Virus record (IMG/VR): IMGVR_UViG_3300044259_000056 | Coordinates: 1 to 64,000 of that record | Length of the DNA: 64,000 nt | DNA from: a virus | Taxonomy: Duplodnaviria > Caudoviricetes | Reading direction: 5' to 3' (one strand) | Shown here: in pieces, positions 10,826-43,474 of the stretch | How positions within the stretch are numbered: position 1 is the first letter of the stretch | Layout of the letters: every line of letters starts with the position of its first letter | The notes under the pieces: model-generated | What the model was told of the DNA's origin: nothing | The model's input: the letters and a program-made list of their open reading frames with translations, nothing else | The model's database searches: none | Position numbers and translations under genes: made by a program

Positions 10826-12608
10826 ATGTCAGAAAGCATTATAATTGCCCCTCAACCGGGGCCACAAGAACAATTTGTAAACCTAAGAGACAATATTCCA
10901 TTAGTATTTTATGGGGGTGAAATAACCTGCTCGCCCCGTTGCACAGTAATGTGTAACTAGTTCCTATCTAATTCGGTGAAGTCTTAACACATAACGGTGA
11001 AGATAATACCGAGCCAAGCAGCTAAACATCTTTTAAGATATTTAGTGGGCGTGTGTGGAGGTCATTATGTAGTGGTCAAGTGACTGCGAAACGGTAGGCT
11101 CCTGTCAATCAGGATGAAGATATGACCCGACACTTCCAGAAATGGAAGAAAAGTTTAACGAACTTTATAACAGAAAGGCAGCAGGCGGCGGAAAAAGTTA
11201 CTCTATACTAATGGATGTTTTAAAATATGTAGATGATCCGTATTATTATGCAGTATTTTTTAGAAAGACAGTTAAACAAATAGAAAGGACGTTATGGCCT
11301 GAAGCAAAGGATATGTACGATCCATTTTTAAAAGAGCAATCTGGACCTAGAAAAGGTAAGTTTAAAGGAAAAGCCCAAATAAGGGAAAAAGATAAAGTTA
11401 TTATCTTCCCGTCAGGAGCAAAGGTTGAGTTTGCCTACCTAGATACAGATAGAGATGCAAAAGAGAATTTTCAAGGTGCTCAAATAAACGCAGCATATTT
11501 TGATGAATTTGGACATTTCTCAGAGTTTGTGTTCAACTATATAAGAACTCGTATGAGGTCAAAACCAACAGCAAAATATTTACCTTATATTCGTTGTACA
11601 TTAAACCCAGAACCAAACCATTTTGTTCTTAAATATTTAAGTAGATACATTGGAGAAGATGGGCTTCCAATAAAAGAATACTCTGGTAGACCTGCATACT
11701 TCTTAAATGTTAAAGGTGAGATAATAACTGCGTGGAGTGAAGAAGAGTTATTAAAACTTCACCCAGATAAAAAACCACGTATGTATACCTTTATTCCTTC
11801 TTCTTTGAGTGATAACAAAAAACTACTTGAAGTTAACCCTGAGTATGCAGATGATTTACTTGCAAATGACCCAGCAAATGCTGAATTACTTTTAAGGGGG
11901 AATTGGTTATATAAACCAGCAGCTAATGGTGTTTTTGAAAAATCAACTATAAAAGTTGTTGATAAAGTTCCTCTCGGAAGTAAGTATATTAGAGCATGGG
12001 ATAAAGCATCCTCTAAACCTGTTAGTGAAGGTGGTGATAGCAAACAGAAAGACCCAGACTATACAGCAAGTATCTTGTTTGCAAAAGATAAAGAAGGCTT
12101 TATTTATGTGATGGGGAATTATTATAGGGAACAAGACAATTCTCAAAGGTCTAGGTTTAGAGAAAGACCGGGAACAAGAGATACTTACATTGAACAGCAA
12201 GCATATCATGATGGGGATGATGTCACAATAATTCTACCATGTGACCCCGGACAGGCTGGTATTGTAGAGCTACAGGAAAGTTCAAAGAAATTACAATCAC
12301 TTGGTTTTACAGTTAAACCAGACCCATTGCCGGGTAACAAAAGTAAGAGAATAAGATTTGAACCTTTTTGCACAGCTTGTCATATTGGGAATGTCTTCTG
12401 GGTAAAATCTTCCTTTGATCCGAAAGTATGGGATTACTTAATAATGGAACTTGAAAACTTTGATGGTGATAAAAATAATGGATACCATGATGATTTTGTA
12501 GACTGTTTTTCAACAGCTTATGCATCTTGCTTAAAAGAGAAAGTACAAGAACCTGTTGCATTCCATGCAATATCTGCACCTACATTAAAATACAAAGCAA
12601 GAATTTAA
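10826..12608 (+). CDS. terL: Terminase large subunit, spliced (exons 10826-10918 and 11178-12608; 507 aa)
   Basis: Exon 1 MSESIIIAPQPGPQEQF...VFYGG joins AAGGGKSY to restore Walker A. Walker B AAYFDE and the nuclease motifs RAWDKA and HDDFVD are present. Confidence 0.92.
10919..11177 (+). mobile_element. Group I intron in terL (259 nt, no ORF)
   Basis: Exon ends in U and the intron in G. P1 GGGGU pairs with IGS GCCCC (10933-37); P10 CCUGCU pairs with AGCAGG; P4 UUCGGUG/UACCGAG; P7 GGUCAU (11060-65)/AUGACC (11122-27). Confidence 0.9.
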
Positions 12609-12615
12609 TGTCACT

Positions 12616-12644
12616 TTGACTTATTTCAACTTTAAGTGTAGAAT
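12616..12644 (+). promoter_or_regulatory. Sigma70-like promoter for head operon
   Basis: TTGACT-17-TAGAAT. Confidence 0.65.
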
Positions 12645-12694: not shown

Positions 12695-15230
12695 GTGACA
12701 GATGTTAAAACTAAGAGGACTTATAGAAAGAAATCTTCTTATTGGGAGGAGAGAAAATCTTCAGTAAGTCCTCAGTCTATAGAAAAAGCCAGTAACATGG
12801 ATATGTCTACCTCAAGGTTAAGGTTGGGTGAAATTGGTTCTACTGCACTTTCAACAATTAAGTTGTACGCAGATTGGAGAAAACCTTATGATCTAAAATG
12901 GCCTGAGTGCATTAGAACCTATAATGAAATGGAGTATGATGACGATGTAGCAACAGCATTGGATGCAAGTTACACATTCGTAGAAAGGGCATTTGTTGAA
13001 CCAGAAGTAGTTTATAATAAAGAATCAGAAGTCTCTATTGAGGCAGCAAGATTTTTAAAGTGGTGCCTTAATAACATGGACGACGGTATGACATTACGCT
13101 CTGCTGTTCGTTCAGCTATCACTTTTAAAAAGTATGGTTTTAGTGTCCTAGAGAAGTGTTATACTCAAGTTACTTCTGGTGAATATGCTGGGATGTATAA
13201 GTTGCAGAAGTTAGCAACTAGGCCACAAGAAACACTGAATAAAGCAAACCCATATGTGTATTCAGATGATGGCAGGACAGTTATTGGTATTATTCAGTCT
13301 ATAAATGCAGTATCATCTACAAATGCAATAATCCCTGCATCTATTGTTGGTGATAGGTTTTTACCAAGGAAAAAATTACTTATTTTTGGTTATAACTCCA
13401 CAGATTCAAATCCTTTCGGTGTTTCTCCTTTAGCTAGTATATATCAAGATTGGAAAGAAAAAGTTCTTATATCAGACTATGAAGTTGTTGGTGTTAGTAA
13501 GGACTTGGGTGGTAAACTAAGAGCTGCCTCCCTTTAATAAAACTTCCTTAACTGCTGGAAACCCCTAAAGCTTGATTGTTCATTTCATCTATGTTACATT
13601 AAGAATGAAATAAAACAATCGAGATGCAACAATGGGCAATCAGCAGCGAAGTTCTGCTGATCCTTGGATGAGGATCATATGAAGATAGAAATAGAAAGTA
13701 GTGGATATTATATAACAGATTCTGGAGAGGTTTATAGCAGACGTGGTAATAAACTATGTCCTGTTCTTAACCATAAAGGATATTTGACGGTTAAAATATT
13801 TTACGAAAAGGGTAAATATAAGACTAAGTTTGTTCATAGACTAGTTGCAGAAGCTTTTATTGAAAATCCTAATAATTTGGAAACAGTCAACCATAAAAAT
13901 GGTGTAAAAACAGATAATACTAAAGACAATTTAGAATGGATGAGTAGATTAGACAACACCAAACATGCAGCAAATGTATTACAGGCTCAAAAAGGTGACA
14001 AAGCAACTAATTTGACAATAAACTCTGATATAGCTAGGGAAATTTGTAAACTACTAGAGAAAGATATGCGTAATATTGATATATCTGTTCTATTAAATGT
14101 CCCCAAAAATATTGTTAGAGATATCAGAATAAGAAAAACTTGGACTCATTTATCCAAAGAATATAAGTTTTCTATTTCAAAACATGCAAGAAATGTTAAA
14201 ACTTCTAGCAGAAAATGTTCAACGACTATCGAAAGCATAGGTTAAATGAGAGATAAATAGATTATCTTTTATTATAACTAAAGAAGCAAGTAGAGTACAG
14301 CCAAGTGGTAGGTTGCCATAGTGGAATGGCTATGGTTATAAAACCCTTTAAATGGAAACAGGAAGCATCTCTTTGAGATGAAGATATAGTCTGATCTGCA
14401 TGGAAACATGCAGCAGCTTGAATAAAGCGGGGAGGGATTAACGAACCCTCCTGAACATTATGATGCCTGTCCTTGGTGTTCCAAAAGATATCATAAATAA
14501 AGCAGCAGCAAATCCCGGTGGCGAAGAAGCTAAATCCTTGTATGTATTAGAACAAAATTTAGCTAATCTTCATGCAGGGGAACAAGCATATATTATGCTA
14601 CCATCTGATCCATTTGATAATACACAAGTAAAAGAATATTCTATAGAATTTAAAGGAATTTCAGGTAGCGGTAAACAGTTTGATACTGGAAAACTTATAG
14701 AACGTAGAACTAAGGCTATTTATAATAGACTTGGTGCAGGATTCTTAATAACAGGGGATTCTGGGTCTGGTTCTTATGCATTAAGTGATAATAAACAAAC
14801 TTTCCATAGTCATACTATTGAACGTGATATTGACATTACTCTAGAAGTCCTTAATAAAGAACTAGTTCCACAGTTGCTAGCTTTGAATGGAATATATCTT
14901 GAGGATAAAGATATGCCAAAGATAAAAGCTGGAACTGTTGGTGATCCTGATGTAGAAGCTAATTCTAAGATGATTCAGCGTGTAGTTAGTGTTGGTGCTG
15001 TTCCAATGGTTCCAGAAGTTATTAATGAGTTTTTAGAAAAACTTGGATTAAGTTACAGGCTACCTGTTGATATTATCTCGGATGAGAAAGCTTATCAAGA
15101 CTTTGTTAGTAAATATCTTCCTGCAAATGTCTCAAGGGCAGGCGATGGGATGAGTAAACCGGGGAATGGTACATCAAACTCTGTAGCGTCAACAGATAAT
15201 TCATCTTTAAATTTGGATAATGCCTCTTGA
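12695..15230 (+). CDS. Portal protein, spliced (exons 12695-13513 and 14463-15230; 528 aa)
   Basis: Follows terL; RLRLGEIG at the N-terminus; junction KDLGG|MPVLGVP is in frame. Confidence 0.88.
13514..14462 (+). mobile_element. Group I intron (IA2-like) in portal gene, 949 nt, encoding an HNH endonuclease
   Basis: P1 GGUGGU pairs with IGS GCUGCC (13523-28); P4 UGCUGG/UCAGCA; P7 GACUA (14224-28)/UAGUC (14387-91); terminal G at 14462. Confidence 0.92.
13679..14245 (+). CDS. Intron-encoded HNH homing endonuclease (I-HmuI-like)
   Basis: HRLVAEAFIENPNNLETVNHKNGVKTDNTKDNLEW; SD GAGGA precedes ATG 13679; the 3' end runs into P7. Confidence 0.9.
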   Translation: MKIEIESSGYYITDSGEVYSRRGNKLCPVLNHKGYLTVKIFYEKGKYKTKFVHRLVAEAFIENPNNLETVNHKNGVKTDNTKDNLEWMSRLDNTKHAANVLQAQKGDKATNLTINSDIAREICKLLEKDMRNIDISVLLNVPKNIVRDIRIRKTWTHLSKEYKFSISKHARNVKTSSRKCSTTIESIG

Positions 15231-15387
15231 TAACTTTTGTTTTATTGTTTTTCATATTAAAATACTTTAATAAATGTTGTATTAAATAACTACAAATTTA
15301 TGTTAACTGTTGACTTATATTAAATTTTATTTTAAAATAAGTAATAGGAACCCTGCTAACATAACAGCAGATTATATTGGAGGTCTT

Positions 15388-15843
15388 TTGTTTAACAAAG
15401 ATAAACTCCTTTCTCTATTCAAAACCTTTCTTGATGAAAACATCTCTGACCAACCTACTGTTGAAATCATAAAACAATTTGATGAAGAAAAGATGGAGGC
15501 AGTTGAGGTATTATACTGCCCACCAGACCAAGCAGACCTTCATCAAGAGGCAATGACAGAAGATGAAATCGTTAAGATGGTTGATAATCTTAATGCAGCT
15601 ATTAAGAAAGGTAGAGTTAAAGGAAATATTGCTCATGCTGTAAATACAGATAAGATTTATCCTGTAGAAGCTTGGGTAAATAAAGTAGCTTGTGATATTG
15701 GTGGTAAAACCATTCCAGCAGGAATGCCACTAATTAAAATGAAGTTTACTGATAGACAGCTTTGGGAAGAAAGGAAATCAGGAAAATTAAAAGGTGTATC
15801 AATGGGTGCTCGTGGAGAAAGAGTTGAGGTAAAGAATGATTAA
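15388..15843 (+). CDS. Prohead protease (XkdF-like)
   Basis: DLHQEAM, GNIAHAVN, GKLKGVSMGA; TTG start after SD GGAGG (track start 15310). Confidence 0.8.
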   Translation: MFNKDKLLSLFKTFLDENISDQPTVEIIKQFDEEKMEAVEVLYCPPDQADLHQEAMTEDEIVKMVDNLNAAIKKGRVKGNIAHAVNTDKIYPVEAWVNKVACDIGGKTIPAGMPLIKMKFTDRQLWEERKSGKLKGVSMGARGERVEVKND

Positions 15844-17128
15844 AAATTACCTTCAAAACGTATCCTTTGATTTTGAGGAAAATGAAGAGAGCCTTGGCCC
15901 ACATATTGCATACACACTTGAATTTCAGGGTGGTGCAGCATCTGGATACAATGATCCAATTCTCCTAAAATCAAAGAAAACTGTTATTACCAGTGAGGTG
16001 ATAAAAGGTCTAAAAGAGGTAGGAATAGACACCTCTAGTTTGGAGAAATCAATGTTTCAGAGTGATCTGCGTGAACAACTACAAAGTGCTATCAGGGAAA
16101 AAGCATTTTGTGATGAATATGATTGGTGTTGGGTTTGTGATTTTAACGATGAAATAGTTGTATTCTGTAGTGATGATGGCTTATATAGTGTTGCTTATGT
16201 CATTGAGGATAATTCTGTTAAAGTTGATAATATAGCTAATCCTGTTGTCCGTTTAATTGACTATGTTGCTGTTGATGGTGAAGTAAAAGTTAGTGAAGAA
16301 ATGGAAGACAAGCTAGAACAACAAATGATGGATATGTTGAATAAAGCTAACTCCCAACCAGACCTAAAAAAATTCATTCTTAAAGCTGTCACTAAGAAAG
16401 AAGGGAATGAAAATCTTACTGCTGATAAATATGCATATACTCCAGACAAAGAAAAAGTTTCTACTTGGAAATTGCGTATTGATACTGCTGCAAACACCAG
16501 TGCTGCCGTTGCTGCATTAGGAAAAGGATTCCGTGGAAATAAAGTTAAAATCCCATCAGCAGATTTACCTGCTGTTAAAAAGAAAGTCTCTACAGCTTAT
16601 AAGAAATTTTATCCAGACAAAGAATTGCCAGAGATATTGAAATCAAAAACAGAGGTTCCAGCCTCTGCAAGTAAACTAGAAAAAGGAGCCTCCGTGGATT
16701 TACAAGAACTAATGAAGAGTAATGAGTTTGCTGAACTCTTGAAAGCTGAAATTGCAAAAGCAACTGCAAACGAAGCCAAAGAAAAAGAAGAACTTCAAAA
16801 AGCTTTGAATACTGAAAAAGAACGTATTGCTGCACTGGAAGCTAAAGAAGTTGAGCGTGTTGAGAAATCACATCGTGACATTCTTAAATCTTTCTCATCT
16901 TTTATTGCCGAAGATAAAACTGAAGCACTTGTAAAAGCTTTCATGAAAGATGCAGAGACTGCTCTTGTGGTAATTGAAGTTTTAGAAAAAGCTAACTCTG
17001 TCGTTGAACAGGTTAAGAAAGAATTCGGTGCTGAGGTTGGAGTTAACGTTAAAGTTGAAGACTCTGCTAGCCTACAAGAGAAAATCATTGCTAAAGCTAA
17101 AGCAATGAAAGAAGCCCAATCTAAATAA
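15836..17128 (+). CDS. Head scaffold/morphogenesis protein with internal basic domain
   Basis: HIAYT...GGAASGYN N-terminus and coiled-coil C-terminus, directly upstream of the capsid genes. Confidence 0.7.
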   Translation: MIKNYLQNVSFDFEENEESLGPHIAYTLEFQGGAASGYNDPILLKSKKTVITSEVIKGLKEVGIDTSSLEKSMFQSDLREQLQSAIREKAFCDEYDWCWVCDFNDEIVVFCSDDGLYSVAYVIEDNSVKVDNIANPVVRLIDYVAVDGEVKVSEEMEDKLEQQMMDMLNKANSQPDLKKFILKAVTKKEGNENLTADKYAYTPDKEKVSTWKLRIDTAANTSAAVAALGKGFRGNKVKIPSADLPAVKKKVSTAYKKFYPDKELPEILKSKTEVPASASKLEKGASVDLQELMKSNEFAELLKAEIAKATANEAKEKEELQKALNTEKERIAALEAKEVERVEKSHRDILKSFSSFIAEDKTEALVKAFMKDAETALVVIEVLEKANSVVEQVKKEFGAEVGVNVKVEDSASLQEKIIAKAKAMKEAQSK

Positions 17129-17146
17129 TAAAAAGGGAAAATAAAA

Positions 17147-17527
17147 ATGGCAATTGCTACATACACTTCTTCTGATCGTTACACCGATCTTGTTCTGGGT
17201 CAGGTTGACGCAACTGACTTGGGTTATTCTTTTGAGACTGTAAACGTCACCAAAACAGCCACCACTCGTATTGGTTCTTTGCTTGCAGGTGCTACTGAAA
17301 TTGCAAACGCTGCTGCTGCAACGGCTAATGGTGTGATTGTATGGGTTGACAGTTATAATGGTCTGGATGATTTTGCAGTCGGCGCAACTGTTCCGTGTGT
17401 TGTTGCTAAACGTGCAGTGACTCTTAACCAGAATAAACTTGTATTTACCGATGGTGCAGTTAACGCAACTGCAATTACCGCTTTGAATGCTTTTGGCATC
17501 AAAGTTACTTCTAAAATTGTTAGCTAA
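17147..17527 (+). CDS. Head decoration protein
   Basis: Small A/T/V-rich protein immediately before the MCP. Confidence 0.75.
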   Translation: MAIATYTSSDRYTDLVLGQVDATDLGYSFETVNVTKTATTRIGSLLAGATEIANAAAATANGVIVWVDSYNGLDDFAVGATVPCVVAKRAVTLNQNKLVFTDGAVNATAITALNAFGIKVTSKIVS

Positions 17528-17540
17528 TTGAGGGATTAAG

Positions 17541-18539
17541 ATGCCAGTTGCTTTTACTGATAAACTATTGGACTTTACACCACTGTATGAGTTCATGACT
17601 ACCCCTGTTCCTAAAACTGTCACTAATCTTGACATGTTTGAAAAGAACTATAATATGACTGATTTGGCCTCTGTTGGTCGTTTGTCACATGCAGTAGGTA
17701 CTATTCCTGCACAAGCTCGTGGTGGCGAGCGTAATTTCATGATTTCTAATCCAGCTACCATGAAAGCATGGCAGATTCCATTCTTCCCACTGGATAAAAA
17801 TATCAAACCTACTGATGTTCAGAATTTCCTGAACATGATTAATGACCGAGATACCCCAGAAACTGCCCAAACTCTGGTGACTAAGTTTATGCAGCGTATG
17901 CGTAATGCTCATGCAACTACTAAGGAAAAGATTCGTACTTCTGCTATTAAGGGCACAAACTTCCTAGGTGGCGGTGTAGGTGTTTCAGTCAACTATTATA
18001 CTGAGTGGGGCTTGACTCAACAGACAGCTAACTTGGATTTTAGTTCTCCTACTGTAGACCCAGCAAGTGTTCTAGAAGCTAATGCTCGTGCATATATTAT
18101 CGATAATAAAGGTGATGATTCTGACTTCACAGAAGTTGTGGCTCTTTGTGGACGTAAATACTTCCAAGCACTGATCGATAACGCATATGTTCGCACTGCC
18201 TATTCTTATTATATGGATGGTGTTCAGCCTCTGCGTGATCGTGTTTCTGGTAATGTTGATGCACGTTCTTTTGAATACAAAGGTATCCGTTATATAGAAG
18301 ATATCTATGGTAATATTGAGACTAATAAAGCATATATCTTCCCTGTAGGTATTGATGGTATGTTCCATGAGTTTTATGCTCCTGCTGATACTATTGCCGA
18401 AGCAAATACTGAAGCTAAGGAAGAATATTTCTGGCTTGACTTGGAACGTCGCACTGCATCTATTCAGTCTGAATTTGGGCTGTTGGCTGTGAACACACGT
18501 CCTGAGCTGGTTGTATCTTCTACTGGTACTAACCTGTAA
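17541..18539 (+). CDS. Major capsid protein (lambda E-like HK97 fold)
   Basis: 332 aa, highly biased codons, RGGERN and IPFFPLD motifs, terminator follows. Confidence 0.9.
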   Translation: MPVAFTDKLLDFTPLYEFMTTPVPKTVTNLDMFEKNYNMTDLASVGRLSHAVGTIPAQARGGERNFMISNPATMKAWQIPFFPLDKNIKPTDVQNFLNMINDRDTPETAQTLVTKFMQRMRNAHATTKEKIRTSAIKGTNFLGGGVGVSVNYYTEWGLTQQTANLDFSSPTVDPASVLEANARAYIIDNKGDDSDFTEVVALCGRKYFQALIDNAYVRTAYSYYMDGVQPLRDRVSGNVDARSFEYKGIRYIEDIYGNIETNKAYIFPVGIDGMFHEFYAPADTIAEANTEAKEEYFWLDLERRTASIQSEFGLLAVNTRPELVVSSTGTNL

Positions 18540-18556
18540 GATTTAAGAGTAGATTA

Positions 18557-18584
18557 AGGGCTGGGCTTATTGCCCGGCCTTTTT
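18557..18584 (+). terminator. Rho-independent terminator after MCP
   Basis: GGGCTGGGC-TTATT-GCCCGGCC followed by TTTTT. Confidence 0.85.
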
Positions 18585-18603
18585 CATATGGAGAAAGCAC
18601 ACA

Positions 18604-19131
18604 ATGTCAGAAAGAAAATATTATCTTAGTTTTGCAGAATTGCTTATTGATATTGATAAAATGAATGTAGGATTAGATCTAAAAAAGACATTTACTTTAC
18701 CAAATTTCTTTTTAGCAACAAAAGATGGAAAGATTCATCAAGCACATGACCTAAATAGCTTTATCAATATTCTTACCTCTGTCCTAGGTGTTGATATAAT
18801 CCCTTGGTCTGGTGTAGACGCTGTTCCTCTGAGTCTTGTTTATAATGATTATTCTTCTGAATTTAAAATTGAAGAAATTGTAGAGCAAGAGGTTGAAGTT
18901 GTCAAGGACAAACCACTGACTGACAGTCTTCCACAAACAGAGACTATTGAAACTCAAGTTATTGAGACTGATAAGGTAGAAAAGTCATTAGAGGATATGA
19001 CAGCAAAAGAGATTATTAAGTTACTAACAGATGCAGGTGAAGTTATCCCTAAGATTATAAATAAAACCCAATTAATAAAACTTGTAAAAACAAAATTTGG
19101 GGAAAAGTATGGCAACACAGCAACAGATTGA
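18604..19131 (+). CDS. Hypothetical protein with C-terminal Rho-N/LEM-like helix pair
   Basis: LEDMTAKEIIKLL...KIINKTQLIKLV. Confidence 0.6.
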   Translation: MSERKYYLSFAELLIDIDKMNVGLDLKKTFTLPNFFLATKDGKIHQAHDLNSFINILTSVLGVDIIPWSGVDAVPLSLVYNDYSSEFKIEEIVEQEVEVVKDKPLTDSLPQTETIETQVIETDKVEKSLEDMTAKEIIKLLTDAGEVIPKIINKTQLIKLVKTKFGEKYGNTATD

Positions 19132-19624: not shown

Positions 19625-19632
19625 AGGTAAAT

Positions 19633-19857
19633 ATGTTACAACCAATTGTTATTGCTAATCGTGTTATTGCAAAAGAATTTATTGATGAGAAAACAGGAAA
19701 AGCTTTCTCTTTTTACAAAGAAGATGAATACAAAGTTAAGGGTAATTTTGAATCAACAGCCACAAAACTACCTGAACTTGTTGCAGATTATAACAAACTT
19801 ATTTCAGCGTTGGAAGAAGTAGGGATTATAATCCCTGATGTGAAGGAAGAAGATTAA
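19633..19857 (+). CDS. Head-fibre-like small protein
   Basis: ATKLPELVADYNKLISALEEVGII resembles the phage head-fibre trimerisation motif. Confidence 0.5.
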   Translation: MLQPIVIANRVIAKEFIDEKTGKAFSFYKEDEYKVKGNFESTATKLPELVADYNKLISALEEVGIIIPDVKEED

Positions 19858-19869
19858 TCTAGAGGTGCT

Positions 19870-20337: not shown

Positions 20338-20410
20338 CAACAGTTGCTCTTAAAATAGAATTATGTTATCATATATTTAGGGAGGTAATATATTACTTTC
20401 AGATTTTTCT

Positions 20411-21383: not shown

Positions 21384-21392
21384 GAGTATTAA

Positions 21393-22775: not shown

Positions 22776-22789
22776 TAGGAGTATAAAGA

Positions 22790-23260: not shown

Positions 23261-23276
23261 ATATCGCTGTGTGCGA

Positions 23277-24157: not shown

Positions 24158-24193
24158 ATGGTTAGGTATCAACAAATCTCTACGGAGGGTGTA

Positions 24194-27100
24194 TTGGCAA
24201 TTAATTTTGATGCTGCCATTATTAAAAATAAAGTGGTATATACAACAGACCTCTCATCACTTAAAAAAGTAATGGCGGATATTAGGAAGGTTCAACAGTC
24301 AGCATCTAAATCTGTTTTAGCTTCCTCAACAATAAAACAATCAAGACAACAAGCTGAACAGACAAAACGTTGGGCATCAGAAACAATGGATGCACATGTT
24401 AAAGCTATGAACGAAGTAAGAAAATCAAAGGCATCTCAATTTCAGAAGTCATCTCAAGATTATTTCAATGACTTATTTGGCATAGGTAAGAAAACAAAAT
24501 CTGCCAGAGAGTCTGGTTATGCTTTTTTAGAACAGTTTCAGGCACAAGATGCCGCAGCAAATGAAATAAGGAAAAGGCAAAAAGAATCTTTGAGAAGACA
24601 GACAGCAGACCAGAAGAAAATAGATGAAGCTAATATTAAAGCAACAGAAGATAGACTAAGAAGAAAAGATGTAGCGAGTTCTAAGCAATCTTTTTTTGGT
24701 TTTGAATTAGGAAAAACAAGACTCGGTGTTGATGATATGCGAGCCTATACAACACAAATGAGAAACTTATCTCAGGAGTATGTATCAGGGAGTATGTCTG
24801 TCAGACAATATAATGAATCAACACGACAATTACTTTCTACTGCAAGACAACAGAGTAAAGAGTCATTAACACTTAAAGAAAGGTTAATGAGTATTCGTGG
24901 AGAAATGGTTCTCTTTGGTGTAACTGCTGGATTTGTTATTAAAGATGTTGTAGATACAGGAAAACAATTTCAACAATTAAATTTATCTTTTGATACAGCA
25001 TTTGGTAAAGATAAAGGCGAGGCAATGGATTTTGTTCGCTCAGAGGCTGATAGATTAGGTATGAGTGTCCTTGGTGTTAGTAAGAACTATGCTCGGTTAG
25101 CTTATGGTGCTAAGTTAATGGGCATGTCACAATCAGATGTTCAGATGGGATTCTCTGGGATATCTGAAGCAGCAACTGCTTGGGGTCTATCAAATGAGCA
25201 AGTTCAAGGGACATTTAAAGCATTTACAGATATGATCTCAAAAGGCACAGTCCAGTTAGAGGAGCTTAATGTTAGGTTCCTGAAACTTCTTTAATTGTCG
25301 GGGAAATCTTGAAAGGTATTGACTACTCTCTCTACATAGTGATATAGTAGAAAAACTCTTGGTAATGCAAGAGCTATAGTAAAAACGTCAATAATAGAGA
25401 TAATCCGCAGGTAAGGTTCTTTATTTCATAAAGAACAAACTTCAACGACTATCGAAAGCATAGGTTAAATGAGAGATAAATAGATTATCTTTTATTATAA
25501 CTAAAGAAGCAAGTAGAGTACAGCCAAGTGGTAGGTTGCCATAGTGGAATGGCTATGGTTATAAAACCCTTTAAATGGAAACAGGAAGCATCTCTTTGAG
25601 ATGAAGATATAGTCTGATCCTCATATGAGAATATGAGCAGACACAAGGAAGTGTCTGTTTGTGTTTAACGAACACAAAAAACATCGGTGAAAACAACAAC
25701 TCGGTTATACTATTAGCTGAGTATAAACTTCCTTAACTGCTGGAAACCCCTAAAGCTTGATTGTTTATTTTCTATATGTTATATTAAGAATGAAATAAAA
25801 CAATCGAGATGCAACAATGGGCAATCAGCAACTAAGCATCTCTCCAGAAAAGAAAGTAAGGAGAAAATATGGAATATGAAAATCTAAGCAAAAACTATAA
25901 AGTGACATCTTGTGGTTTAGTCTTTTCTTTAAGAAGAAATAAATATCTGAAGCAGTCAATATTTGGTGGGTATAATATAGTAAATATTGGCAAGAAGAAC
26001 TATTTTGTTCATAGACTAGTTGCTATAACTTATATACCAAATCCAAGTAATCTTCCTTGTGTTAATCATAAAGATGGAAATAAGCTAAATAACCATGTAG
26101 ATAACCTTGAGTGGTGCACAAGTGGATACAATCAATGTCATGCATATTTAACTGGACTAAAAAGGTTACCAAAAGGTGAAATGAATGGAAGAAGCGTTTT
26201 AACAGATTCTGAAGTTCTAAGTGTCTACGATGATCTTATGTCTGGGGCAAGAGTTAAAGATATTTCAGAGATCTATGGTGTAGGAAAAAGCACTATAATG
26301 TCTATTAAGAAAAAAGAGTCATGGCAGCACTTATTAAAAGATAAACCAGATATAAAAATAAAGAAAAAGACACAAACCTTATCTGAAAATACTGTTATAT
26401 GGATTTGTAAACAGTTGTCAGAAAATAAGACAGTTAAATGGATTTTTGATAACTGTCATAAGAATGTTACAATTAATCAAATACAAGATATAAAGAGAAG
26501 GCATTGTTTTTGTAAGATAAGTAAAGATTTCATATGGTGATGAAAGCTCAACGACTATCGAAAGCATAACTTAGGTCTTAGCCTGAGTGAGTAAGCAAGT
26601 AGAGTAGCGCCAAGTGGTAGGTGATTAAAGTGGAATGACTTTAATTATAAAACCCTTTAAAGCAAAATGGGAAGAGGTGTATAACAGATTATGCACTTAA
26701 GATATAGTCTGATCTGCATGGAAACATGCAGCAGCTTGAATAAAGCGGGGAGGGATTAACGAACCCTCCTGAACATTATGGATCGTATGCCGGATGCAAT
26801 GGCTGTGTTTGCTAAAGCATTAGACCCAGAGTCTTATGCAAAAAATCCACAGAAAGCCATTGAAAAAATGCAAGAGACTATTAAGAAAGGTAATCTCAAG
26901 TCTCTTGAAACATTACCTAAAGTATTTAAAGTATTCCATGAAATATATGGCCCACAAGCTGAAAAAGCTATGTATGGTGTCACTCAACAACAGAACAGAT
27001 TCAATAATACATTAAATGATTTCAAAAATATAATCTTTCAGTCTGGTTTAGCAAATGCAACAGTTAGGTTATTTGGTGCACTAAACAATTTCTTGAAAGG

Positions 27101-27866
27101 TTCTAAGCCCTTAGCTGCATTTTTAGGTGGTATTGCACAAGGTTTTGCAGATTTACTTTACTATGTAGAACTTGGTGAAGCATATTTCCTAGATTTTGCT
27201 GTTGCAATGGGTGTTTTGAATTATGAGACAGGAAAATGGAATAAAGATGTCCTTAATGCATTTGCTGAGGTTGGTGAAGCTGCTGGCATCCTTTTTGGTT
27301 TGAAATTAATTAAATGGTTAATGGGAACTGTTACAAGTTTTAATAAATTAGGTTCAACTGTTGGTAAGTTAGGGGCTAAGTTTGGTATAGCAAGTGGTTT
27401 TGCTGTGTCACTTTTAGGGGCTATTGAAGGTATTGCTAAATTTGCAGGAAAAACTTTGCTTATTGGAATTGCATTAGATTTCTTTTCTAAAATTGGTGAT
27501 CTTGAAAAAGAGGCTCAAGATAAGAATAAAAATCTTGGTGAGCTACTTTATGAGAAATCACAACAAAAAGAGAAAGAACGTATTGCAAGAGGTGGCGCGG
27601 ATGTAAGTAATTGGTGGGAAAATGTAAAAAGCTTTTTTACCCCGAATAGTGGTACTCTAACATCTCCATCCCCTTGGGAGAACACTATGTCCTCTAATTT
27701 TAATCCCTTCCTAATGGGCATGGCAGGTGTCTCTGCACCAAAAGAAGCTTATCAACCTCCTGTTGAAATTAATCTTAACTTTAAAGGGGAAGGTCTTAAA
27801 GACTTCTGGGATGTTCAGATGAGTAATCAAGCCTCGAGTCTATATGACTTCCAGTTAAATAAATAG
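24194..27866 (+). CDS. Tape measure protein, doubly spliced (exons 24194-25266, 25690-25705, 26781-27866; 724 aa)
   Basis: TTG start after GGAGG. Splicing restores the tape-measure motif SKGTVQLEEL-KQQLG-DRMPDA in one frame. Confidence 0.9.
25267..25689 (+). mobile_element. Group I intron TMP-1 (423 nt, no ORF)
   Basis: P1 GGAGCU pairs with IGS GGUUCC (25275-80); P7 GACUA (25447-51)/UAGUC (25610-14); P9 hairpins; terminal G at 25689. Confidence 0.9.
25690..25705 (+). other. 16-nt TMP micro-exon (A AAA CAA CAA CTC GGT)
   Basis: Completes the Leu codon CT|A and encodes KQQLG, the only gap in the TMP motif. Confidence 0.85.
25706..26780 (+). mobile_element. Group I intron TMP-2 (1075 nt) encoding an HNH endonuclease
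   Basis: P1 CUCGGU pairs with IGS GCUGAG (25716-21); P7 GACUA (26553-57)/UAGUC (26705-09); terminal G at 26780. Confidence 0.92.
25869..26540 (+). CDS. Intron-encoded HNH homing endonuclease with tandem C-terminal HTH-like repeats
   Basis: HRLVAITYIPNPSNLPCVNHKDGNKLNNHVDNLEW; SD AAGGAG. Confidence 0.92.
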   Translation: MEYENLSKNYKVTSCGLVFSLRRNKYLKQSIFGGYNIVNIGKKNYFVHRLVAITYIPNPSNLPCVNHKDGNKLNNHVDNLEWCTSGYNQCHAYLTGLKRLPKGEMNGRSVLTDSEVLSVYDDLMSGARVKDISEIYGVGKSTIMSIKKKESWQHLLKDKPDIKIKKKTQTLSENTVIWICKQLSENKTVKWIFDNCHKNVTINQIQDIKRRHCFCKISKDFIW

Positions 27867-37386: not shown

Positions 37387-39018
37387 TTAGTGAATCTCTG
37401 AATATTTTTTACCAAATTGTACGTCTACATCTAATTTACGTCTTAAATTGAATTCTTTATTTACATCTTCTACTGCCCCTTTTATCAATGATTTAAATTC
37501 AGATTTAAATTTTTCTGTATCTTTAAAACTAAACATTACTTCATCATGCATCTGCAATTGTATTTTATTTACCCCGAATTTCTCTTTTTGTCTCCGTAGG
37601 ATGTGTTTCAACCACATATCAAAGAAATAACTTCCTGAACCCTGACAGAGTGTTGAGAACACATCTTTTTTAGCTCTGATTGCATACATAAAACCATTGA
37701 TAGGGTTAACTAACCAGAGTTTGTGTAAATTATTATAACCTTCTTCAGAAGGGAATTCAACTAAAAATTGTTCTTCTGCAATTGCCTGAACAGACCAGTT
37801 AAGTTTCCAATATGATTCATGTAATAACTTACCTGTCGTTAAATCTACCCCAGCAGTCTGAGAGATTTTAGGTGCCCCGGCCCCGTACACAGCACTGTAG
37901 TTGCAATTACCAGTAATTGTTAGAACATTCCCTTGTCTAATAAGGAAATTGCCATTTTCTGTTATAAGGCAAAAAACATCTGTATCTCTAGTATATTGTT
38001 TTCTTAGACGCTGACAAGTAATATGTGGCCTACCCTGTGCACTAATTTGCATATTACTTTTACTCTTATAGCTAACAGTAGTGTTTTTCCCTGTTAAGTG
38101 TAAAGCCAATTGAATGGCATCATAAACCCTACCAAGATTTTGATAAATAATTAAAGATTTTTTACTCTTACCTTTTTCACTAGTCAATCCATCTGCTTTC
38201 CAAAAAGCATCAATAAAAGAGTGAAGAGATTCTGTATTTAGACTACAAATCCATTGGGTATAATCAATCTCATGTTTACTCTTTAAAGGAAGTCCAACAG
38301 ATTTAATAAAATTTCTTGCGTCTACTGAAGGTATTGTTAAAGAAAGAACACCATTGCTTGCCGTTATTTTATCTTCACGATAAGTTAGGTTTAGTTTTTC
38401 TAATAATTCTTTTATTTCATTTAAATATTTTTTTGGTGACTGAGCTATTGACATTCTAACATACTGCCGTTGTCCCATTTTGCCTTGAGAAGTTTTCTTA
38501 GTCAACTTTGAAACATGCAGATACCCATCAGATAAAATCCAACCTAATAAACGTGCTTGATCTGGTGAAACAGAACTATCACCACCAATATACTCTCCTG
38601 TTGTAATAATATTCATATCAGAATTAACTTTATCAGTTTCTTCATAAAAAGTTTTTACCCAAGGATTAGACTTAGTTCTTACACGTTTATCCACCAACCA
38701 TTTATGATTACCAGTTGACTCTACACACCATGAACGGTGTGAAAGTGTCTTTACAGGTTGACATTCATAAAAAACTTTATCTAAGACTTTACACCAAACT
38801 TGTTTACGTTCCTTATTCAAGGACATAACATATTCACCAGACTTGATCTCATTAAAACTCTTCCAGCCATCTTGGGTTAAGACTTCAGTGTTATCAACAG
38901 GCAAACAAGATTTACCTAATTTTCTTGCTGAAGATATTCTTTCAATTATCTTCTTTTGTTCTTCTGGTGGCAATGCTTTCATTTCTTCAAAACTTAAACC
39001 TCTTTTATTCATATGCAC
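37387..39018 (-). CDS. Family A DNA polymerase, C-terminal part (motifs B and C) with intein
   Basis: RKLGKS|CNYSAVYG after intein removal; QGSG and QMHDE motifs. Confidence 0.9.
   Translation of the reverse strand: MHMNKRGLSFEEMKALPPEEQKKIIERISSARKLGKSCLPVDNTEVLTQDGWKSFNEIKSGEYVMSLNKERKQVWCKVLDKVFYECQPVKTLSHRSWCVESTGNHKWLVDKRVRTKSNPWVKTFYEETDKVNSDMNIITTGEYIGGDSSVSPDQARLLGWILSDGYLHVSKLTKKTSQGKMGQRQYVRMSIAQSPKKYLNEIKELLEKLNLTYREDKITASNGVLSLTIPSVDARNFIKSVGLPLKSKHEIDYTQWICSLNTESLHSFIDAFWKADGLTSEKGKSKKSLIIYQNLGRVYDAIQLALHLTGKNTTVSYKSKSNMQISAQGRPHITCQRLRKQYTRDTDVFCLITENGNFLIRQGNVLTITGNCNYSAVYGAGAPKISQTAGVDLTTGKLLHESYWKLNWSVQAIAEEQFLVEFPSEEGYNNLHKLWLVNPINGFMYAIRAKKDVFSTLCQGSGSYFFDMWLKHILRRQKEKFGVNKIQLQMHDEVMFSFKDTEKFKSEFKSLIKGAVEDVNKEFNLRRKLDVDVQFGKKYSEIH
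37906..38907 (-). mobile_element. LAGLIDADG intein in DNA polymerase motif B (334 aa)
   Basis: Starts CLPVDNTEVLTQDGW; LLGWILSDG and AFWKADG blocks; ends ITGN; +1 residue is Cys. Confidence 0.93.
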
Positions 39019-39046
39019 TCTTCTCTATAAATAGACCAAGAAACTG

Positions 39047-40711
39047 TTAATGGTTCTTCTTATACCATTTATAAAACATCTCTTCATCCTCTGTAATAAA
39101 TTCAGCAGTAACAGCCATTTTAGTGTGAGGATCATAGTCATCAGCCATCATGGTTTCAACATATTTTGGATCATGTGCTAACATAAAATGGTGTTTAGTC
39201 CTGTCTTCAAGTGAGGACATGTCAGAACCACATAATGTATAACCCTTTTCTGAAATAAATGACCCACGAATTTCTTCCCCACCTATTTTATCAACACCAA
39301 CAAGGTTTACAACATTTCGATGTTTTACCCTTAAGGTGTTGGTTAACCCACCAATAGAAGCTTTAATTCTACCTTTATCATCCATATCCCTTAGTAAGCC
39401 TTTAATCACACCTAGGCGATGTTTATAAAGGTTTAAGTTAGAATAGAGGGCAATCTCTGGAACATCTTCAGCAAGCTTTTCTACACTCTGACAGAGGACT
39501 TTGCCGTCTTCTCCACTTATAGTAACTTGTGGGACTTGTCTGGCAATTGGCCTTTCAGGTTTTGTTCCCCTTCTGCACCCAAGTGCCTTCCATCTTTTCA
39601 TGTCATCTTGCCAAGCTTGTTCAGCCTCTTTATCTTTTACCTCTTTAAAAGTCTCAGGAATCCAACCATGTGAATATAAGAAATTTTTTATTTGTTCTGG
39701 TGAGTTTGCATTTGGGTCTTCATAGTTAGTCAGAACTAAAAACTCTTCAATTTCGTCAACCTCACGACAGCGCATTTCACCATTAATCTCAACTAGAGGT
39801 TCACTCTTTCCTAGTAAAACTCTGGCTGTTCCAACATCATCTTTTGTTGATGACTGATATTGTTGTTTAAGTAGCTCCCAAGTTTTACCAGCTTCTGTAT
39901 ACTCACCATTTTGTTTAAAATACTTTTTAGGTTTAGTCTTCTTAGAGTATTTTGGTATTTTTGGCATAACAGATTCTAATTTATCTTTTAATTCTTTAAC
40001 TTTATCAGCAAAAAATTTCTCACTGTTATCTAAATGTTCTTTATCCAAAAGGATACCAATATCTTCCTGAATTCTATATGTATCTAACTTAAACATTAAG
40101 AAAGATAAAAATCTTTCAATATGTTGGTCTACAGACAAACCTTTTAAAGAGTCTATATAGAGTTCTTCATTTGGGCTAATTCTTTTTCCACCAACTAATC
40201 CAGCATCTATTGCTTCCTTAGATTGGGTGTACATTAAGGTAAGTCTATTCTTGAAGTCTTCCCAAAGAGCTTTATTTATCTTTACATCTTCTTGACAACG
40301 ATGTTTATATTCTTCATAGGAAAGATTTTTCCAGTCCTCCACCTTTGGTTTTTCAATACCATAATCTTCATGAAAAGAGTCTAAACCATGTTGACTTCTT
40401 GTTGTATTAAGGTACCAACTTAAAGCTAATGTATCTATCACCATTAAGTTTGACAAATTCATAGAAGTTATTTTTTCTAAGGCCGGAACATCAAACAGAA
40501 TAAAATTATGACCAACAATAGGGATTTCATTCTCTATGTGCCAACTTAACATATTTTTTATTCTTTCAATATCCGCACCATCAATAGAGGAAGGGGAAGA
40601 TTTCCCTTCCATTTGAAAACTCACAACATGGCATTTTGTCAGTTCATTTAGGAGGCCGTCTGTTTCAATATCTGAGACAGTCCCCTTCCTCCAATTTTTT
40701 ATTAACTTCAT
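39047..40711 (-). CDS. Family A (T7-like) DNA polymerase, N-terminal part (3'-5' exonuclease to motif A)
   Basis: SDIETDG, GHNFILFD, CQEDV, GSDMSSLEDR. Confidence 0.92.
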   Translation of the reverse strand: MKLIKNWRKGTVSDIETDGLLNELTKCHVVSFQMEGKSSPSSIDGADIERIKNMLSWHIENEIPIVGHNFILFDVPALEKITSMNLSNLMVIDTLALSWYLNTTRSQHGLDSFHEDYGIEKPKVEDWKNLSYEEYKHRCQEDVKINKALWEDFKNRLTLMYTQSKEAIDAGLVGGKRISPNEELYIDSLKGLSVDQHIERFLSFLMFKLDTYRIQEDIGILLDKEHLDNSEKFFADKVKELKDKLESVMPKIPKYSKKTKPKKYFKQNGEYTEAGKTWELLKQQYQSSTKDDVGTARVLLGKSEPLVEINGEMRCREVDEIEEFLVLTNYEDPNANSPEQIKNFLYSHGWIPETFKEVKDKEAEQAWQDDMKRWKALGCRRGTKPERPIARQVPQVTISGEDGKVLCQSVEKLAEDVPEIALYSNLNLYKHRLGVIKGLLRDMDDKGRIKASIGGLTNTLRVKHRNVVNLVGVDKIGGEEIRGSFISEKGYTLCGSDMSSLEDRTKHHFMLAHDPKYVETMMADDYDPHTKMAVTAEFITEDEEMFYKWYKKNH

Positions 40712-40741
40712 TTGTCCTCCTTAAAGGTGCAACCACAGTAT

Positions 40742-43474
40742 TTAATTAGGCTGTGGTTTTCCTGAAAAGTAATCATCTAAATCATGACATTTAGCTTTAT
40801 CAAACTCATAATACCACTTACCCGCAGGGCCAGTCTTACCACCACGACATTTTGGCAAATCAACTTCAGTTGTGTTCTTCTCAATCAGGTCATCAGAAAG
40901 TTTATCCCGGTTAAGAACAATGTTGTAAGCAGCAGATTGAACAAAACTCCCTGTGCCTAGGGTATCATACTCAGTAACTTTACGGGGCTTACCTTCAGCG
41001 TTCTGAGGTGGTTTACGGGTATGTTGTACATTTACTGTTGTCACACCATTTTTAGCCATATTTCTTTGAAAATTCATATGGTCTTCCGCATGTTCTTCAC
41101 TGCTGCCACGCAATAAATCAGATAATACATCAATAACAAAGAGGCGGCTATCATGTTTTCTAAACAACATTTCCAACTCTTTTTCTAGATCTTTGATATT
41201 ACCAGATCGTTCATCAAGAATATAAAATCTTGGTTGCCCATTCTCTTTATAACATAAACTCTGTTTAATTCTTTGTCCTTCTTCTGTCTTGAGGAAATCT
41301 TTAATTTCTTCACTAGACATTTTCCATAGCATATTCATTTCAAGATGGATAGATAACATCTCTAACATATATTGAGCAGCAGTTGCTTCAAGGCTAACAA
41401 TAGTAGGAGTAACAGGACTGTTAAATATCCAATGATAAACCATTCTATTCACATGTGTACTTTTGCCACAAGAAGTGTCAGCAATAATATTTAGGATTCT
41501 GCCTTGGATAATTCCACCACCCATCATATCTTGCATTTTATGCATATAAGCCGGTAATGTGATACGGGGTTTAGAGAGTTCTTCCTCAATCTCATCAAAA
41601 CCATCAGCAGCACTTTTCACACCTTCTGGAACATAAGGCTTTGCTGCCCAGAAATCATTTATAAATTCTTGCTCTTTATGCAATAATTTCTTTGTGTCAT
41701 TATCATAGATATATGCATTTGGGTCTTTATAGCGCATTTTCATGACAAAAACTTTTCCTTTCGGAAGAACTTCATAAATCTTTTCAGCAGCCTCACGTCC
41801 TGCTGCATCACTATCCATTGCAACTACAATTTTTTTAAATTGATTAATAAAATCATAGTTATTTTGAAGCTGTTTGTATACAGAAGTCTCCCCTGTTGTC
41901 CCACTCACAACAGCAATAGGGTCATAGTTTTTGTTTCTCTGTGCATCAGAAAGCATTTGATATGCTGCTAGTTGATCTGAGTTACCACAAACTACAACCT
42001 TATTATTACGACGAACTAGTAGTTGTCCGTTGGGAACGGTAGCGCAATAAACAAACCCTGAATAATTTTCTGTTGTTATCTCTACACTCTGAAATGAGGC
42101 TGTTTTCTTTGCAAAGGAGATTTTTACTGCGTACCATTCACCTAGGTCATTATTTCTTTTTCTAACAGAAGCATGGTATCCACTGAGAACAGCAATAGAT
42201 TGCACTAGGTCTGCTTCATTTTTAAGTTTAGAGTTGAACTCAATACTGTTGCGATCTTTTACTAAATTTCCATCCCAATGAACAATCTCTTTCAAAAAGA
42301 GGTCTCTTTGCCTAGAATTAAAATCTTTTAACCAAGAATCTGGCAATCCTTTTTTAGTACACCAAGGTTCTAAAGTTACATTGAAAGTATGATAAGAACC
42401 TTTAATCCAGTGTTGGTGGTCTTCCTTACTGTATTCAGTGTAATTCATTTTTAAATCATCTAAAATATTTTTTAGACGTTTAATTTTTCTTTCTTTTTTG
42501 AAAGAAAAATGTGCAACTGCTTTACCACTCACCTTATAATCTACTTTAGCATCAGCAGAGAGTGCAATAATAAACTTAATCTGGTCATCTGTTAAATTAG
42601 AGCCTGCAAAAGTATCCTCAAGTTCTGTTGTTTTCCTGAATAGATTAGCTTTAGAAGTTCCTTCTCCCGCATTGAAGTAAAAATCTTTATTAGTTTTTGG
42701 TCTTACTCCTACCATCTTATGATTTGGTGTTACTAACAAAGAGATTTGATTACTCTTAAAACTAACCAGATCACCAGAATATTCTTTTTTAATAAGACGG
42801 CTAGGTTTCACCCAAGAGGATTTACCCTCTTTCACTTGAAGCACTAAGGTTTTATTATCTAACTCTGAAAATAATTTAAAACCTTCTTGCGTCATCACCT
42901 CTGTTTGATCATCATAACATTCCCCACCAACTAGTAACAAAGTGTTGGTGAAAGTTTTAAATCGAAATTGACCAAATAAATCACAATCTTTGCCAGTCTC
43001 TCCAATTGGGCCGGGGCTTTTAAAATTCTTTGGATGTGTTCGCTGCTTATAGCCTGAAATCTCATAATTCTTAGTTGTTGGATAAAGAGTCCCACAGACT
43101 TCTCCGTCTGTTTCATTATACTTATATCTTACACCAAAAAACTTGGAAATTTCTTGTTTAATCCCACGATAACCTTTTGGGTCAAGTCCCGTTTGTTCCT
43201 TTAATTTCTTATGCACCTCTTCATTAAATTCTGAACCCACAATTTCCTCTTCTTCAAAATCTTTATTGTTATCAATAATCCATTGTTCGTCAGGATAGGT
43301 ATAACCACAGGAGAAACAATATGCTCCTTTATGCAAACCATCTGAATCTAAACCATAGACCATGAGATTATCATTGTTTTGGTCAAGACCTTTTGACTGG
43401 CATTTAGGGCAACCAATATGCCCTTCTACTGATAGGTCTACCATAGTCCCAAAAAGATTCTTTGTCTTACCCAA
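40742..43474 (-). CDS. T7 gp4-like primase-helicase with intein (597 aa mature)
   Basis: Zn finger CPKC..CFSC, TOPRIM GGE|SD and MDSDAAG, helicase ADTSCGKST and RGGKTG. Confidence 0.92.
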   Translation of the reverse strand: MGKTKNLFGTMVDLSVEGHIGCPKCQSKGLDQNNDNLMVYGLDSDGLHKGAYCFSCGYTYPDEQWIIDNNKDFEEEEIVGSEFNEEVHKKLKEQTGLDPKGYRGIKQEISKFFGVRYKYNETDGEVCGTLYPTTKNYEISGYKQRTHPKNFKSPGPIGETGKDCDLFGQFRFKTFTNTLLLVGGECYDDQTEVMTQEGFKLFSELDNKTLVLQVKEGKSSWVKPSRLIKKEYSGDLVSFKSNQISLLVTPNHKMVGVRPKTNKDFYFNAGEGTSKANLFRKTTELEDTFAGSNLTDDQIKFIIALSADAKVDYKVSGKAVAHFSFKKERKIKRLKNILDDLKMNYTEYSKEDHQHWIKGSYHTFNVTLEPWCTKKGLPDSWLKDFNSRQRDLFLKEIVHWDGNLVKDRNSIEFNSKLKNEADLVQSIAVLSGYHASVRKRNNDLGEWYAVKISFAKKTASFQSVEITTENYSGFVYCATVPNGQLLVRRNNKVVVCGNSDQLAAYQMLSDAQRNKNYDPIAVVSGTTGETSVYKQLQNNYDFINQFKKIVVAMDSDAAGREAAEKIYEVLPKGKVFVMKMRYKDPNAYIYDNDTKKLLHKEQEFINDFWAAKPYVPEGVKSAADGFDEIEEELSKPRITLPAYMHKMQDMMGGGIIQGRILNIIADTSCGKSTHVNRMVYHWIFNSPVTPTIVSLEATAAQYMLEMLSIHLEMNMLWKMSSEEIKDFLKTEEGQRIKQSLCYKENGQPRFYILDERSGNIKDLEKELEMLFRKHDSRLFVIDVLSDLLRGSSEEHAEDHMNFQRNMAKNGVTTVNVQHTRKPPQNAEGKPRKVTEYDTLGTGSFVQSAAYNIVLNRDKLSDDLIEKNTTEVDLPKCRGGKTGPAGKWYYEFDKAKCHDLDDYFSGKPQPN
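41981..42919 (-). mobile_element. LAGLIDADG intein in primase TOPRIM motif (313 aa)
   Basis: Starts CYDDQTEVMTQEGF; IALSADA and IVHWDG blocks; ends VVVCGN; +1 residue is Ser. Confidence 0.92.

Follow-up and report, generated by a model that had tools for sequence, protein, structure and literature searches.

Morphogenesis genes with group I introns and replication genes with inteins in an uncultured ICP1-related phage: probably an ordinary homing-element load rather than a regulatory partition

The first 64 kb of a 74,260-bp virus record in IMG/VR (IMGVR_UViG_3300044259_000056), referred to here as the window, carries six intervening elements whose positions appear to follow a rule. Four group I introns interrupt genes for virion morphogenesis, namely terL, the portal gene and, twice, the tape measure protein (TMP) gene, and two inteins interrupt genes for replication, namely those for DNA polymerase (Pol) and primase. 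A sequence-only reading of this stretch had proposed that RNA splicing gates virion assembly and protein splicing gates replication, which raises the question of whether the partition is meaningful. Our answer is mainly a correction: introns for morphogenesis and inteins for replication form a small-sample pattern seen in half a genome and are not to be taken for a regulatory architecture. Beyond that, the window comes from an uncultured relative of Vibrio phage ICP1 and shows that the intron hot spots documented in terL and TMP also occur in a further lineage. To these it adds an intron in the portal gene, clearly a recombinant of two others, whose guide sequence has been re-matched.

The record is ~50% complete according to CheckV and thus represents about half a genome. 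The earlier statement that all introns and both inteins follow the rule holds for this fragment and does not extend to the whole phage; the usual hot spots, namely the genes for ribonucleotide reductase and for thymidylate synthase, fall outside this half of the genome. The window has a GC content of 34%. Its terL product is 66% identical to that of ICP1, its major capsid protein reaches no more than 47% identity to those of phi92-like and rV5-like phages, and its replication module is closest to that of Klebsiella phage FBKp34; the window derives from a myophage of mosaic, partly ICP1-like and partly phi92-like, ancestry. An IMG/VR scan with the major capsid protein alone found no relative, and relatives were gathered by an alignment-based terL scan of IMG/VR; one of the phages compared, G001, is a complete 128-kb relative with a 67% identical terL. 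The window sequence was present in two sediment metagenome runs, and diverged relatives were present in aquatic runs; for the terL-portal stretch, no RNA run was among those listed. Contigs of four metagenome runs were placed on the window and Logan unitigs were used for depth.

All four proposed introns were borne out. The Rfam covariance model RF00028 recognized the conserved group I core (P3-P8, P7) in each of them, intron-less homologues placed every junction to the base, and exact removal of the introns restored reading frames collinear with uninterrupted homologues for terL, portal and TMP (Table 1). In every intron the U at position -1 forms a wobble pair with the G of an internal guide sequence, a complementary segment located 8-10 nt inside the intron, P1 pairing extends over seven of eight positions (five of six in the terL intron), and a G ends the intron at the 3' splice site. 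TMP intron A is the sole match at the Rfam gathering score of 50 (25257-25637). The halves of the portal intron and of TMP intron B fall below this score because an open reading frame (ORF) splits each intron; permissive scans gave 22.6 bits for the 5' part (13553-13699) and 39.3 bits for the 3' part (14168-14413) of the portal intron and located the match in TMP intron B at 26563-26731. The match to the terL intron (10909-11149) came only from a narrow scan of 451 nt. Because a 36-kb scan at expectation values (E) up to 10 had missed this intron, all intergenic gaps were rescanned one by one with Rfam; no further group I intron was found across the 74-kb record (the rest of the window, the last 11 kb and 18 intergenic gaps). 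A P7 motif search at two mismatches performed no better than chance. Default Rfam filters and gene callers overlook such elements, as both the terL intron and its 31-codon exon 1 were missed by the wide scan.

The sequence features of the four introns place them in the td-type, subgroup IA2-like class of group I introns. Their 3' ends resemble those of the T4-like td intron (Pseudomonas phage PspYZU05) and of the Pol intron of Yersinia phage phiR1-37 in the 3' strand of P7, the P9 hairpin, the P9.2 hairpin with its TTAACGA loop, compensatory changes in the stems and a GAACAU.AUG-type end. Both known introns also have a homing-endonuclease ORF in the P6 loop; unlike the introns of the window they are located in td and DNA polymerase, and the td intron carries the GIY-YIG enzyme I-TevI instead of an HNH enzyme. 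The reported combination of two ORF-less introns (terL and TMP intron A) with two HNH-bearing ones (portal and TMP intron B) was found as described. Both HNH ORFs are placed in a peripheral loop of their introns, flanked by the P6 and P7 matches; they have the HNH catalytic motif and a DNA-binding tail and match Pfam HNH_3 and phrog_59 (E 1.5e-41 and 5.7e-45). The encoded proteins, which are only 36% identical to each other, are predicted I-HmuI-like homing endonucleases and may be active in homing. Among the window ORFs screened, no free-standing endonuclease domain was detected.

In ICP1, terL consists of two exons and TMP of four, one TMP intron contains an HNH gene (PMC10448857), and splicing of both genes has been shown by RNA-seq and reverse transcription PCR (RT-PCR) (Barth, Dunham and Seed, 2023, NAR Genom Bioinform; PMC10448857). 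The terL and TMP intron loci of ICP1 were reconfirmed in our analysis, and by homology to these introns those of the window would also splice. The window resembles ICP1 in three respects: an ORF-less intron occupies the identical site in the terL P-loop (FYGG/...GGGKS, the slash marking the splice point), TMP is interrupted repeatedly in the same short stretch encoding EEL.QLG, with tiny exons and one HNH-bearing intron, and inteins occur in DNA-metabolism genes, Pol and primase in the window and NrdA, with a LAGLIDADG intein, in ICP1 (PMC10448857). It differs in that ICP1 has three TMP introns instead of two and an uninterrupted portal gene. The authors of the ICP1 study describe TMP as a frequently interrupted gene, and ICP1 isolates show turnover of homing endonucleases among the TMP introns (PMC10448857).

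The terL intron lies within the Walker A motif. Joining of the two exons yields PLVFYGG/AAGGGKS, which is letter-identical to the intron-less relatives P0006-P0013, and at the 5' splice site U10918 pairs with G10933, the last base of the intron being G. Homologues at the same site were found in ICP1 (42.1 bits) and in G001 and G005 (92.8 bits); compensatory changes are seen in P8 and P9. Within the intron family of the window, the one in terL is more distantly related. Exon 1 has no ORF call, and the gene call starting at 11142 falls within the intron. The original annotation of ICP1 contains the same error, in which ORF129, the homologue of exon 1, is listed as 'hypothetical' and ORF128 is noted for a 'poor ribosome-binding site'. 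In ICP1 and G001, a T5orf172 homing endonuclease gene is located just upstream of terL exon 1, whereas the ORF directly 5' of exon 1 in the window [9955-10818 (+), 287 aa] lacks a nuclease signature and has no match in Pfam, PHROG or NCBIfam. This ORF was considered as a collaborative-homing endonuclease and rejected, having no similarity to the T5orf172 proteins of ICP1 or G001; it may encode a small terminase subunit or something new. As the window lacks the neighboring T5orf172 gene of ICP1 and G001, the terL intron is probably immobile at present.

The intron in the portal gene is a mosaic. Its 5' core (13540-13651) is 94% identical to TMP intron B (25725-25836), its P7-P8 block (14218-14401) is 99% identical to TMP intron A (25441-25624), and its last 82 nt (14381-14462) match the 3' tail of TMP intron B (26699-26780) at 100% identity. 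Every intron has a P1 guide region of its own: that of the portal intron is not that of TMP intron B, and each fits its own exon. Since repeats of 94-100% identity are combined with a unique P1 guide and with HNH proteins of only 36% identity, the portal intron is a recent recombinant copy that arose inside this genome and was redirected to a new exon. Bryk and Belfort reportedly described, in 1990, domain shuffling between the T4 td and nrdD (sunY) introns, with chimeras arising through shared core elements as in the portal intron; those chimeras are said to have been recovered in the laboratory between existing sites, whereas the chimera described here interrupts a third gene, and both its guide and its HNH gene are different ones. 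Removal of the intron joins DLGG to MPVL, and the VEcB portal is uninterrupted at the corresponding residues 268/269. Two contigs placed on the window carry alternative alleles: one of run X5 leaves out exactly the 949 nt of the intron and represents an intron-less portal allele, and in one of run X3 the intron is present but 15 nt stand in place of 13652-14216, so that the HNH ORF is gone. In runs X1 and X2, the 34-nt P7-P9 core at 14383-14416 reached ~7x the local depth and contigs ran from it into unrelated flanks; other phages in the same sediment samples therefore carry the td-type core.

The VEcB TMP was too diverged for alignment with that of the window, and the TMP junctions were set using TMPs of Vequintavirinae. 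The spliced TMP reads EELKQQLG/DRMP and aligns without gaps to EELKQQLAEGIP of two Vequintavirinae TMPs, indicating that the 16-nt micro-exon is real; the spliced EELKQQLG fits EELKQQL in the intron-less TMPs of NDO71 and EC152. In TMP intron A, U25266 pairs with G25275 and the intron ends in G. The 3' part of TMP intron B is 84% identical to the phiR1-37 DNA polymerase intron, so that a close sequence relative of a tail-gene intron of the window resides in a replication gene. An X3 contig skips 25243-26786, which covers both TMP introns, and represents a TMP allele without introns. Related metagenome contigs of runs X3 and X5 are thus polymorphic for presence and absence of HNH gene and intron.

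The two inteins proposed for Pol motif B and the primase Toprim domain were confirmed by intein-less orthologues and by intein block motifs. The Pol of Klebsiella phage FBKp34 reads KLGKS-TNYSAVYG without an intein at the corresponding site, and the Pol intein has the block residues C1, TGNH, a terminal N and C at +1. An AlphaFold model of the Pol intein (predicted local distance difference test, pLDDT, 86.6) shows a HINT and LAGLIDADG fold with the TliVMA intein as best PDB match [E 1.8e-16, template modeling (TM) score 0.72], followed by PI-SceI and PI-PfuI. The primase orthologues of VEcB, G001 and FBKp34 are contiguous across the primase intein site, and the exteins of the primase-helicase are 72-85% identical to FBKp34. 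This intein matched the Intein_splicing and intein_Nterm profiles only weakly and has C1, TPNH, a terminal N and S at +1 as block residues; a PDB sequence search with it returned nothing useful. Neither intein has the penultimate His, both ending in G-N like the mini-intein in the terL of VEcB. Active inteins without this residue are known, for example Ssp DnaE, and its absence lowers our confidence in fast splicing of these predicted inteins and not in their intein membership. The two inteins are 22% identical to each other. Both, as well as the VEcB terL mini-intein (L005 terL residues 43-200), have similar TE(V/Y)(L/M)T(Q/R)(D/E)G(W/F)K start motifs; together with the shared G-N end, this suggests a single phage intein lineage lacking the penultimate histidine.

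The earlier account of the replication genes was right about the intein sites and overlooked that DNA polymerase A (PolA) is also split into two genes. The parts are separated by a stop codon (39047-39049), a 28-nt spacer and a change of frame (window 39010-39052, minus strand). The break lies in a variable loop before motif B, and the FBKp34 orthologue is a single ORF of 739 aa. The break may be a natural split or may be crossed by translational bypassing.

Table 1. Interrupted genes, introns and inteins of the window, and introns of the relative G001.
Feature	Position	Strand	Description
terL exon 1	10826..10918	+	31 codons, ends ...PLVFYGG; translation fits N-termini of intron-less P0006-P0013
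terL intron	10919..11177	+	259 nt, ORF-less group I, inside Walker A motif; RF00028 38.2 bits, E 2.4e-8
terL exon 2	11178..12608	+	AAGGGKS... to stop; Pfam Terminase_6N, Terminase_6C
Portal exon 1	12695..13513	+	ends ...SKDLGG; tblastn against VEcB portal stops at residue 268; Pfam Portal_Mu positions 2-150
Portal intron	13514..14462	+	949 nt, group I, HNH ORF 13679-14245 in P6 loop
Portal exon 2	14463..15230	+	starts MPVLGVPKD; VEcB portal resumes at residue 269, 56% identity
TMP exon 1	24158..25266	+	ends ...GTVQLEE + CT; Pfam TMP_3
TMP intron A	25267..25689	+	423 nt, ORF-less group I; RF00028 60.9 bits, above gathering score
TMP micro-exon	25690..25705	+	16 nt, encodes (L)KQQLG
TMP intron B	25706..26780	+	1075 nt, group I, HNH ORF 25869-26540; RF00028 34.2 bits on 3' part
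TMP exon 3	26781..27866	+	starts DRMPDAMAVF
DNA polymerase A part 2	37387..39018	-	separate gene, start GTG 39018 or ATG 39012; Pfam DNA_pol_A positions 212-380, LAGLIDADG_3
Pol intein (predicted)	37906..38907	-	LAGLIDADG, 334 aa, part 2 residues 38-371, motif B, KLGKS/C...TGN/CNYSAVYG
DNA polymerase A part 1	39047..40711	-	exonuclease domain and motif A; 74% identity to FBKp34 Pol I residues 1-548
Primase-helicase	40742..43474	-	zinc finger, Toprim, DnaB_C; Pfam Toprim and DnaB_C
Primase intein (predicted)	41981..42919	-	313 aa, residues 186-498, after Toprim glutamate, VGGE/C...CGN/SDQL
G001 introns	G001:C1:53740-55301, L020:17754-18082, L031:2139-2349, L030:2653-2922		TMP (about four in tandem), portal, NrdA, after 381-aa ORF

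With the elements in place, the question of the partition itself can be addressed. If all six elements are taken as independent, the distribution of four introns to none and no inteins to two gives a Fisher exact p of 0.067. The six are not independent, because TMP introns A and B are 16 nt apart, the portal intron copies both of them (of the four introns, three are recombinant copies of each other), and the hot spots in terL and TMP have been inherited. A survey of intron and intein occupancy in relatives showed no partition among them, the outcome that the sequence-only reading had itself named in advance as speaking against its proposal. G001 has introns in terL, in the portal gene at another site (ORF-less, close to the position of window portal residues 345-352), in NrdA, in TMP (about four) and in one further gene (G001:43152-43421), and its primase has no intein; G001 shows no protein similarity to window ORFs at ~34.6-46 kb and 119-123.5 kb. 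NDO71 carries an HNH-bearing intron in DNA polymerase. VEcB combines an NrdD intron with a terL mini-intein that occupies the P-loop at a distance of three codons from the intron site of the window, and P0015 (65% identical to the window terL) and P0094 have LAGLIDADG inteins between GGGK and S of the same loop. FBKp34, which has the closest replication module, has none of these elements. A designed partition is therefore contradicted by relatives with introns in Pol, NrdA, NrdB or NrdD and inteins in the terL P-loop.

Published phages give the same picture. Pectobacterium phage CB7 (Certrevirus, Vequintavirinae) is, like the phage of the window, a myophage with many homing elements (CB7 genome ~140 kb; PMC7344957). 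CB7 has introns in terL, DNA polymerase (two), NrdA, NrdB and NAPRT, and inteins in helicase, NrdA and NrdB (PMC7344957). Its terL intron bears an HNH gene, its LAGLIDADG inteins lie in replication and nucleotide-metabolism genes, and splicing was shown by RT-PCR; unlike the window, it has no partition, and no portal or TMP intron was reported (PMC7344957). Cluster J mycobacteriophages have group I introns in capsid and tail genes as well as inteins, along with free-standing HNH genes, and a 156-bp block of 98% identity shared by introns of two of their structural genes points to spread inside a lineage and resembles the portal/TMP mosaic (PMC3706429). In contrast to the window, they are siphoviruses of high-GC hosts and their inteins are located in terL, the opposite of the proposed partition (PMC3706429). 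The distribution can also not be called unusual, as had been claimed, because there is a long record of introns interrupting terL, capsid and tail genes in phages and the ICP1 pattern was already published. As cited in PMC4299906, introns in phage structural genes have been on record since 1995 (LL-H terL), and further introns in morphogenesis genes are described for Moonbeam, for the terL of Bastillevirinae and for the capsid and tail genes of Cluster J (PMC4299906; PMC3706429; PMC11878797). Since the same elements are found in the opposite classes of genes in related phages, the partition is best explained by chance and shared ancestry.

Several points weigh against this explanation and were considered. 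When the window, ICP1 and G001 are taken together, introns are concentrated in terL, portal and TMP (~14, compared to one or two elsewhere), and the three inteins of these phages all lie in DNA-metabolism genes. A clade-level bias therefore exists, and shared ancestry of the sites explains most of it. The 99-100% repeat identity could be slightly inflated by collapse of repeats in the metagenome assembly, as X1 and X2 unitigs break at these positions.

We therefore consider it highly probable that the window carries a heavy but ordinary load of homing elements, arising from neutral parasitism at conserved sites, from hot spots that were inherited and from intragenomic spread. Neutral parasitism had been offered as the alternative to gating and is the reading that the evidence favors; that the elements are neutral is nevertheless something we infer. 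In the proposed course of events, the introns would splice from late mRNAs and restore terL, portal and tape measure protein, and the two LAGLIDADG inteins would splice out of Pol part 2 and the primase-helicase. Because ribozymes and inteins would remove themselves, essential conserved sites can be occupied. The two I-HmuI-like HNH enzymes would drive homing into intron-less alleles during co-infection. Of the ORF-less introns, the one in terL, common to ICP1, G001 and G005, may be kept by descent, and TMP intron A may be kept by co-conversion with the adjacent intron B. Mobilization of an ORF-less intron by co-conversion, as suggested earlier, is plausible given that 16 nt separate TMP intron A from the HNH-bearing intron B and that homing endonucleases turn over among the ICP1 TMP introns (PMC10448857). 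Recombination between shared cores would create new chimeras such as the portal intron with its own guide and HNH gene. The apparent rule would then follow from few independent insertions, inherited hot spots and sampling of half a genome, and not from regulatory design. The existence of wild intron-less and ORF-less alleles indicates that the elements are dispensable and turning over, and these alleles are natural substrates for homing and splicing assays.

Under the regulatory gating that was originally proposed, the conditions for group I folding (Mg2+, GTP, temperature, translation) would throttle virion output and protein splicing would separately throttle replication. Full-length products of terL, portal and TMP do depend on RNA splicing and those of Pol and primase on protein splicing, and the near-identical core blocks of the portal intron and TMP introns A and B would respond alike to folding conditions. 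To our knowledge, no phage has been shown to employ homing introns for regulation, and nothing in the sequence argues for a condition-dependent splicing switch. Intron-less portal and TMP alleles in related wild populations, and orthologues without introns or inteins such as those in FBKp34, indicate that the elements are dispensable, and relatives have introns in Pol and ribonucleotide reductase genes and inteins in terL. In ICP1, a distinct drop in RNA-seq reads over the introns was reported, and the introns were treated as homing loci (PMC10448857). Gating is for these reasons very improbable, and we give equally little credence to the notion of a shared ribozyme-folding brake on packaging motor, portal and tail length that is exploited by the phage or by the introns.

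It is likewise very unlikely that some of the interruptions, chiefly that in the portal gene, remain unspliced and that two polypeptides assemble, as in the Aeh1 NrdA split by mobE. Such genes in pieces would fit the in-frame ATG at the boundary of intron and last exon in portal (14460-14465) and TMP (26778-26780), the apparent two-gene split of PolA without an intron, and an HNH insertion of CB7 that failed to splice (PMC7344957). However, the terminal AUG is a trait of the family that also occurs in the td intron, and a Shine-Dalgarno sequence at a proper distance is not present. Complete group I cores, exon-specific guide sequences, U.G pairs and the terminal G speak for splicing, the 16-nt micro-exon can be expressed only through splicing, and the homologous ICP1 introns splice (PMC10448857).

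An assembly artefact, in which the mosaic introns or the elements as such are mis-joined metagenomic reads of several phages sharing the core, would account for the ~7x depth and foreign flanks of 14383-14416 in X1 and X2 and for unitigs that break at every repeat, but is extremely unlikely, because two runs give all pieces with zero differences, the repeated intron blocks have ~2x single-copy depth in Logan unitigs as fits two copies, all exons are in frame with a gene order as in relatives, and only the order of the window puts all pieces in one linear path, the 11-kb piece 14433-25470 starting and ending in repeats.

Two further observations concern interrupted genes outside the six elements. 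Among the terL relatives, the ORFs of many (P0042-P0089) start at MEFTHFSEY or MRSKSKY, and the L026 terL has a 256-nt insertion (L026:6689-6946) between residues 140 and 141; the ORF starts and the insertion point to further recurrent interruption sites of terL near Walker B, besides the P-loop. In the window, a PIF1/RecD-like helicase [5446-6728 (+)] is spread over two ORFs (5446-6243 and 6129-6728), which are in different frames and have an overlap of 115 nt, and its ICP1 counterpart is annotated as one gene of 471 aa. This layout may reflect a frameshift, an assembly error or a broken gene.

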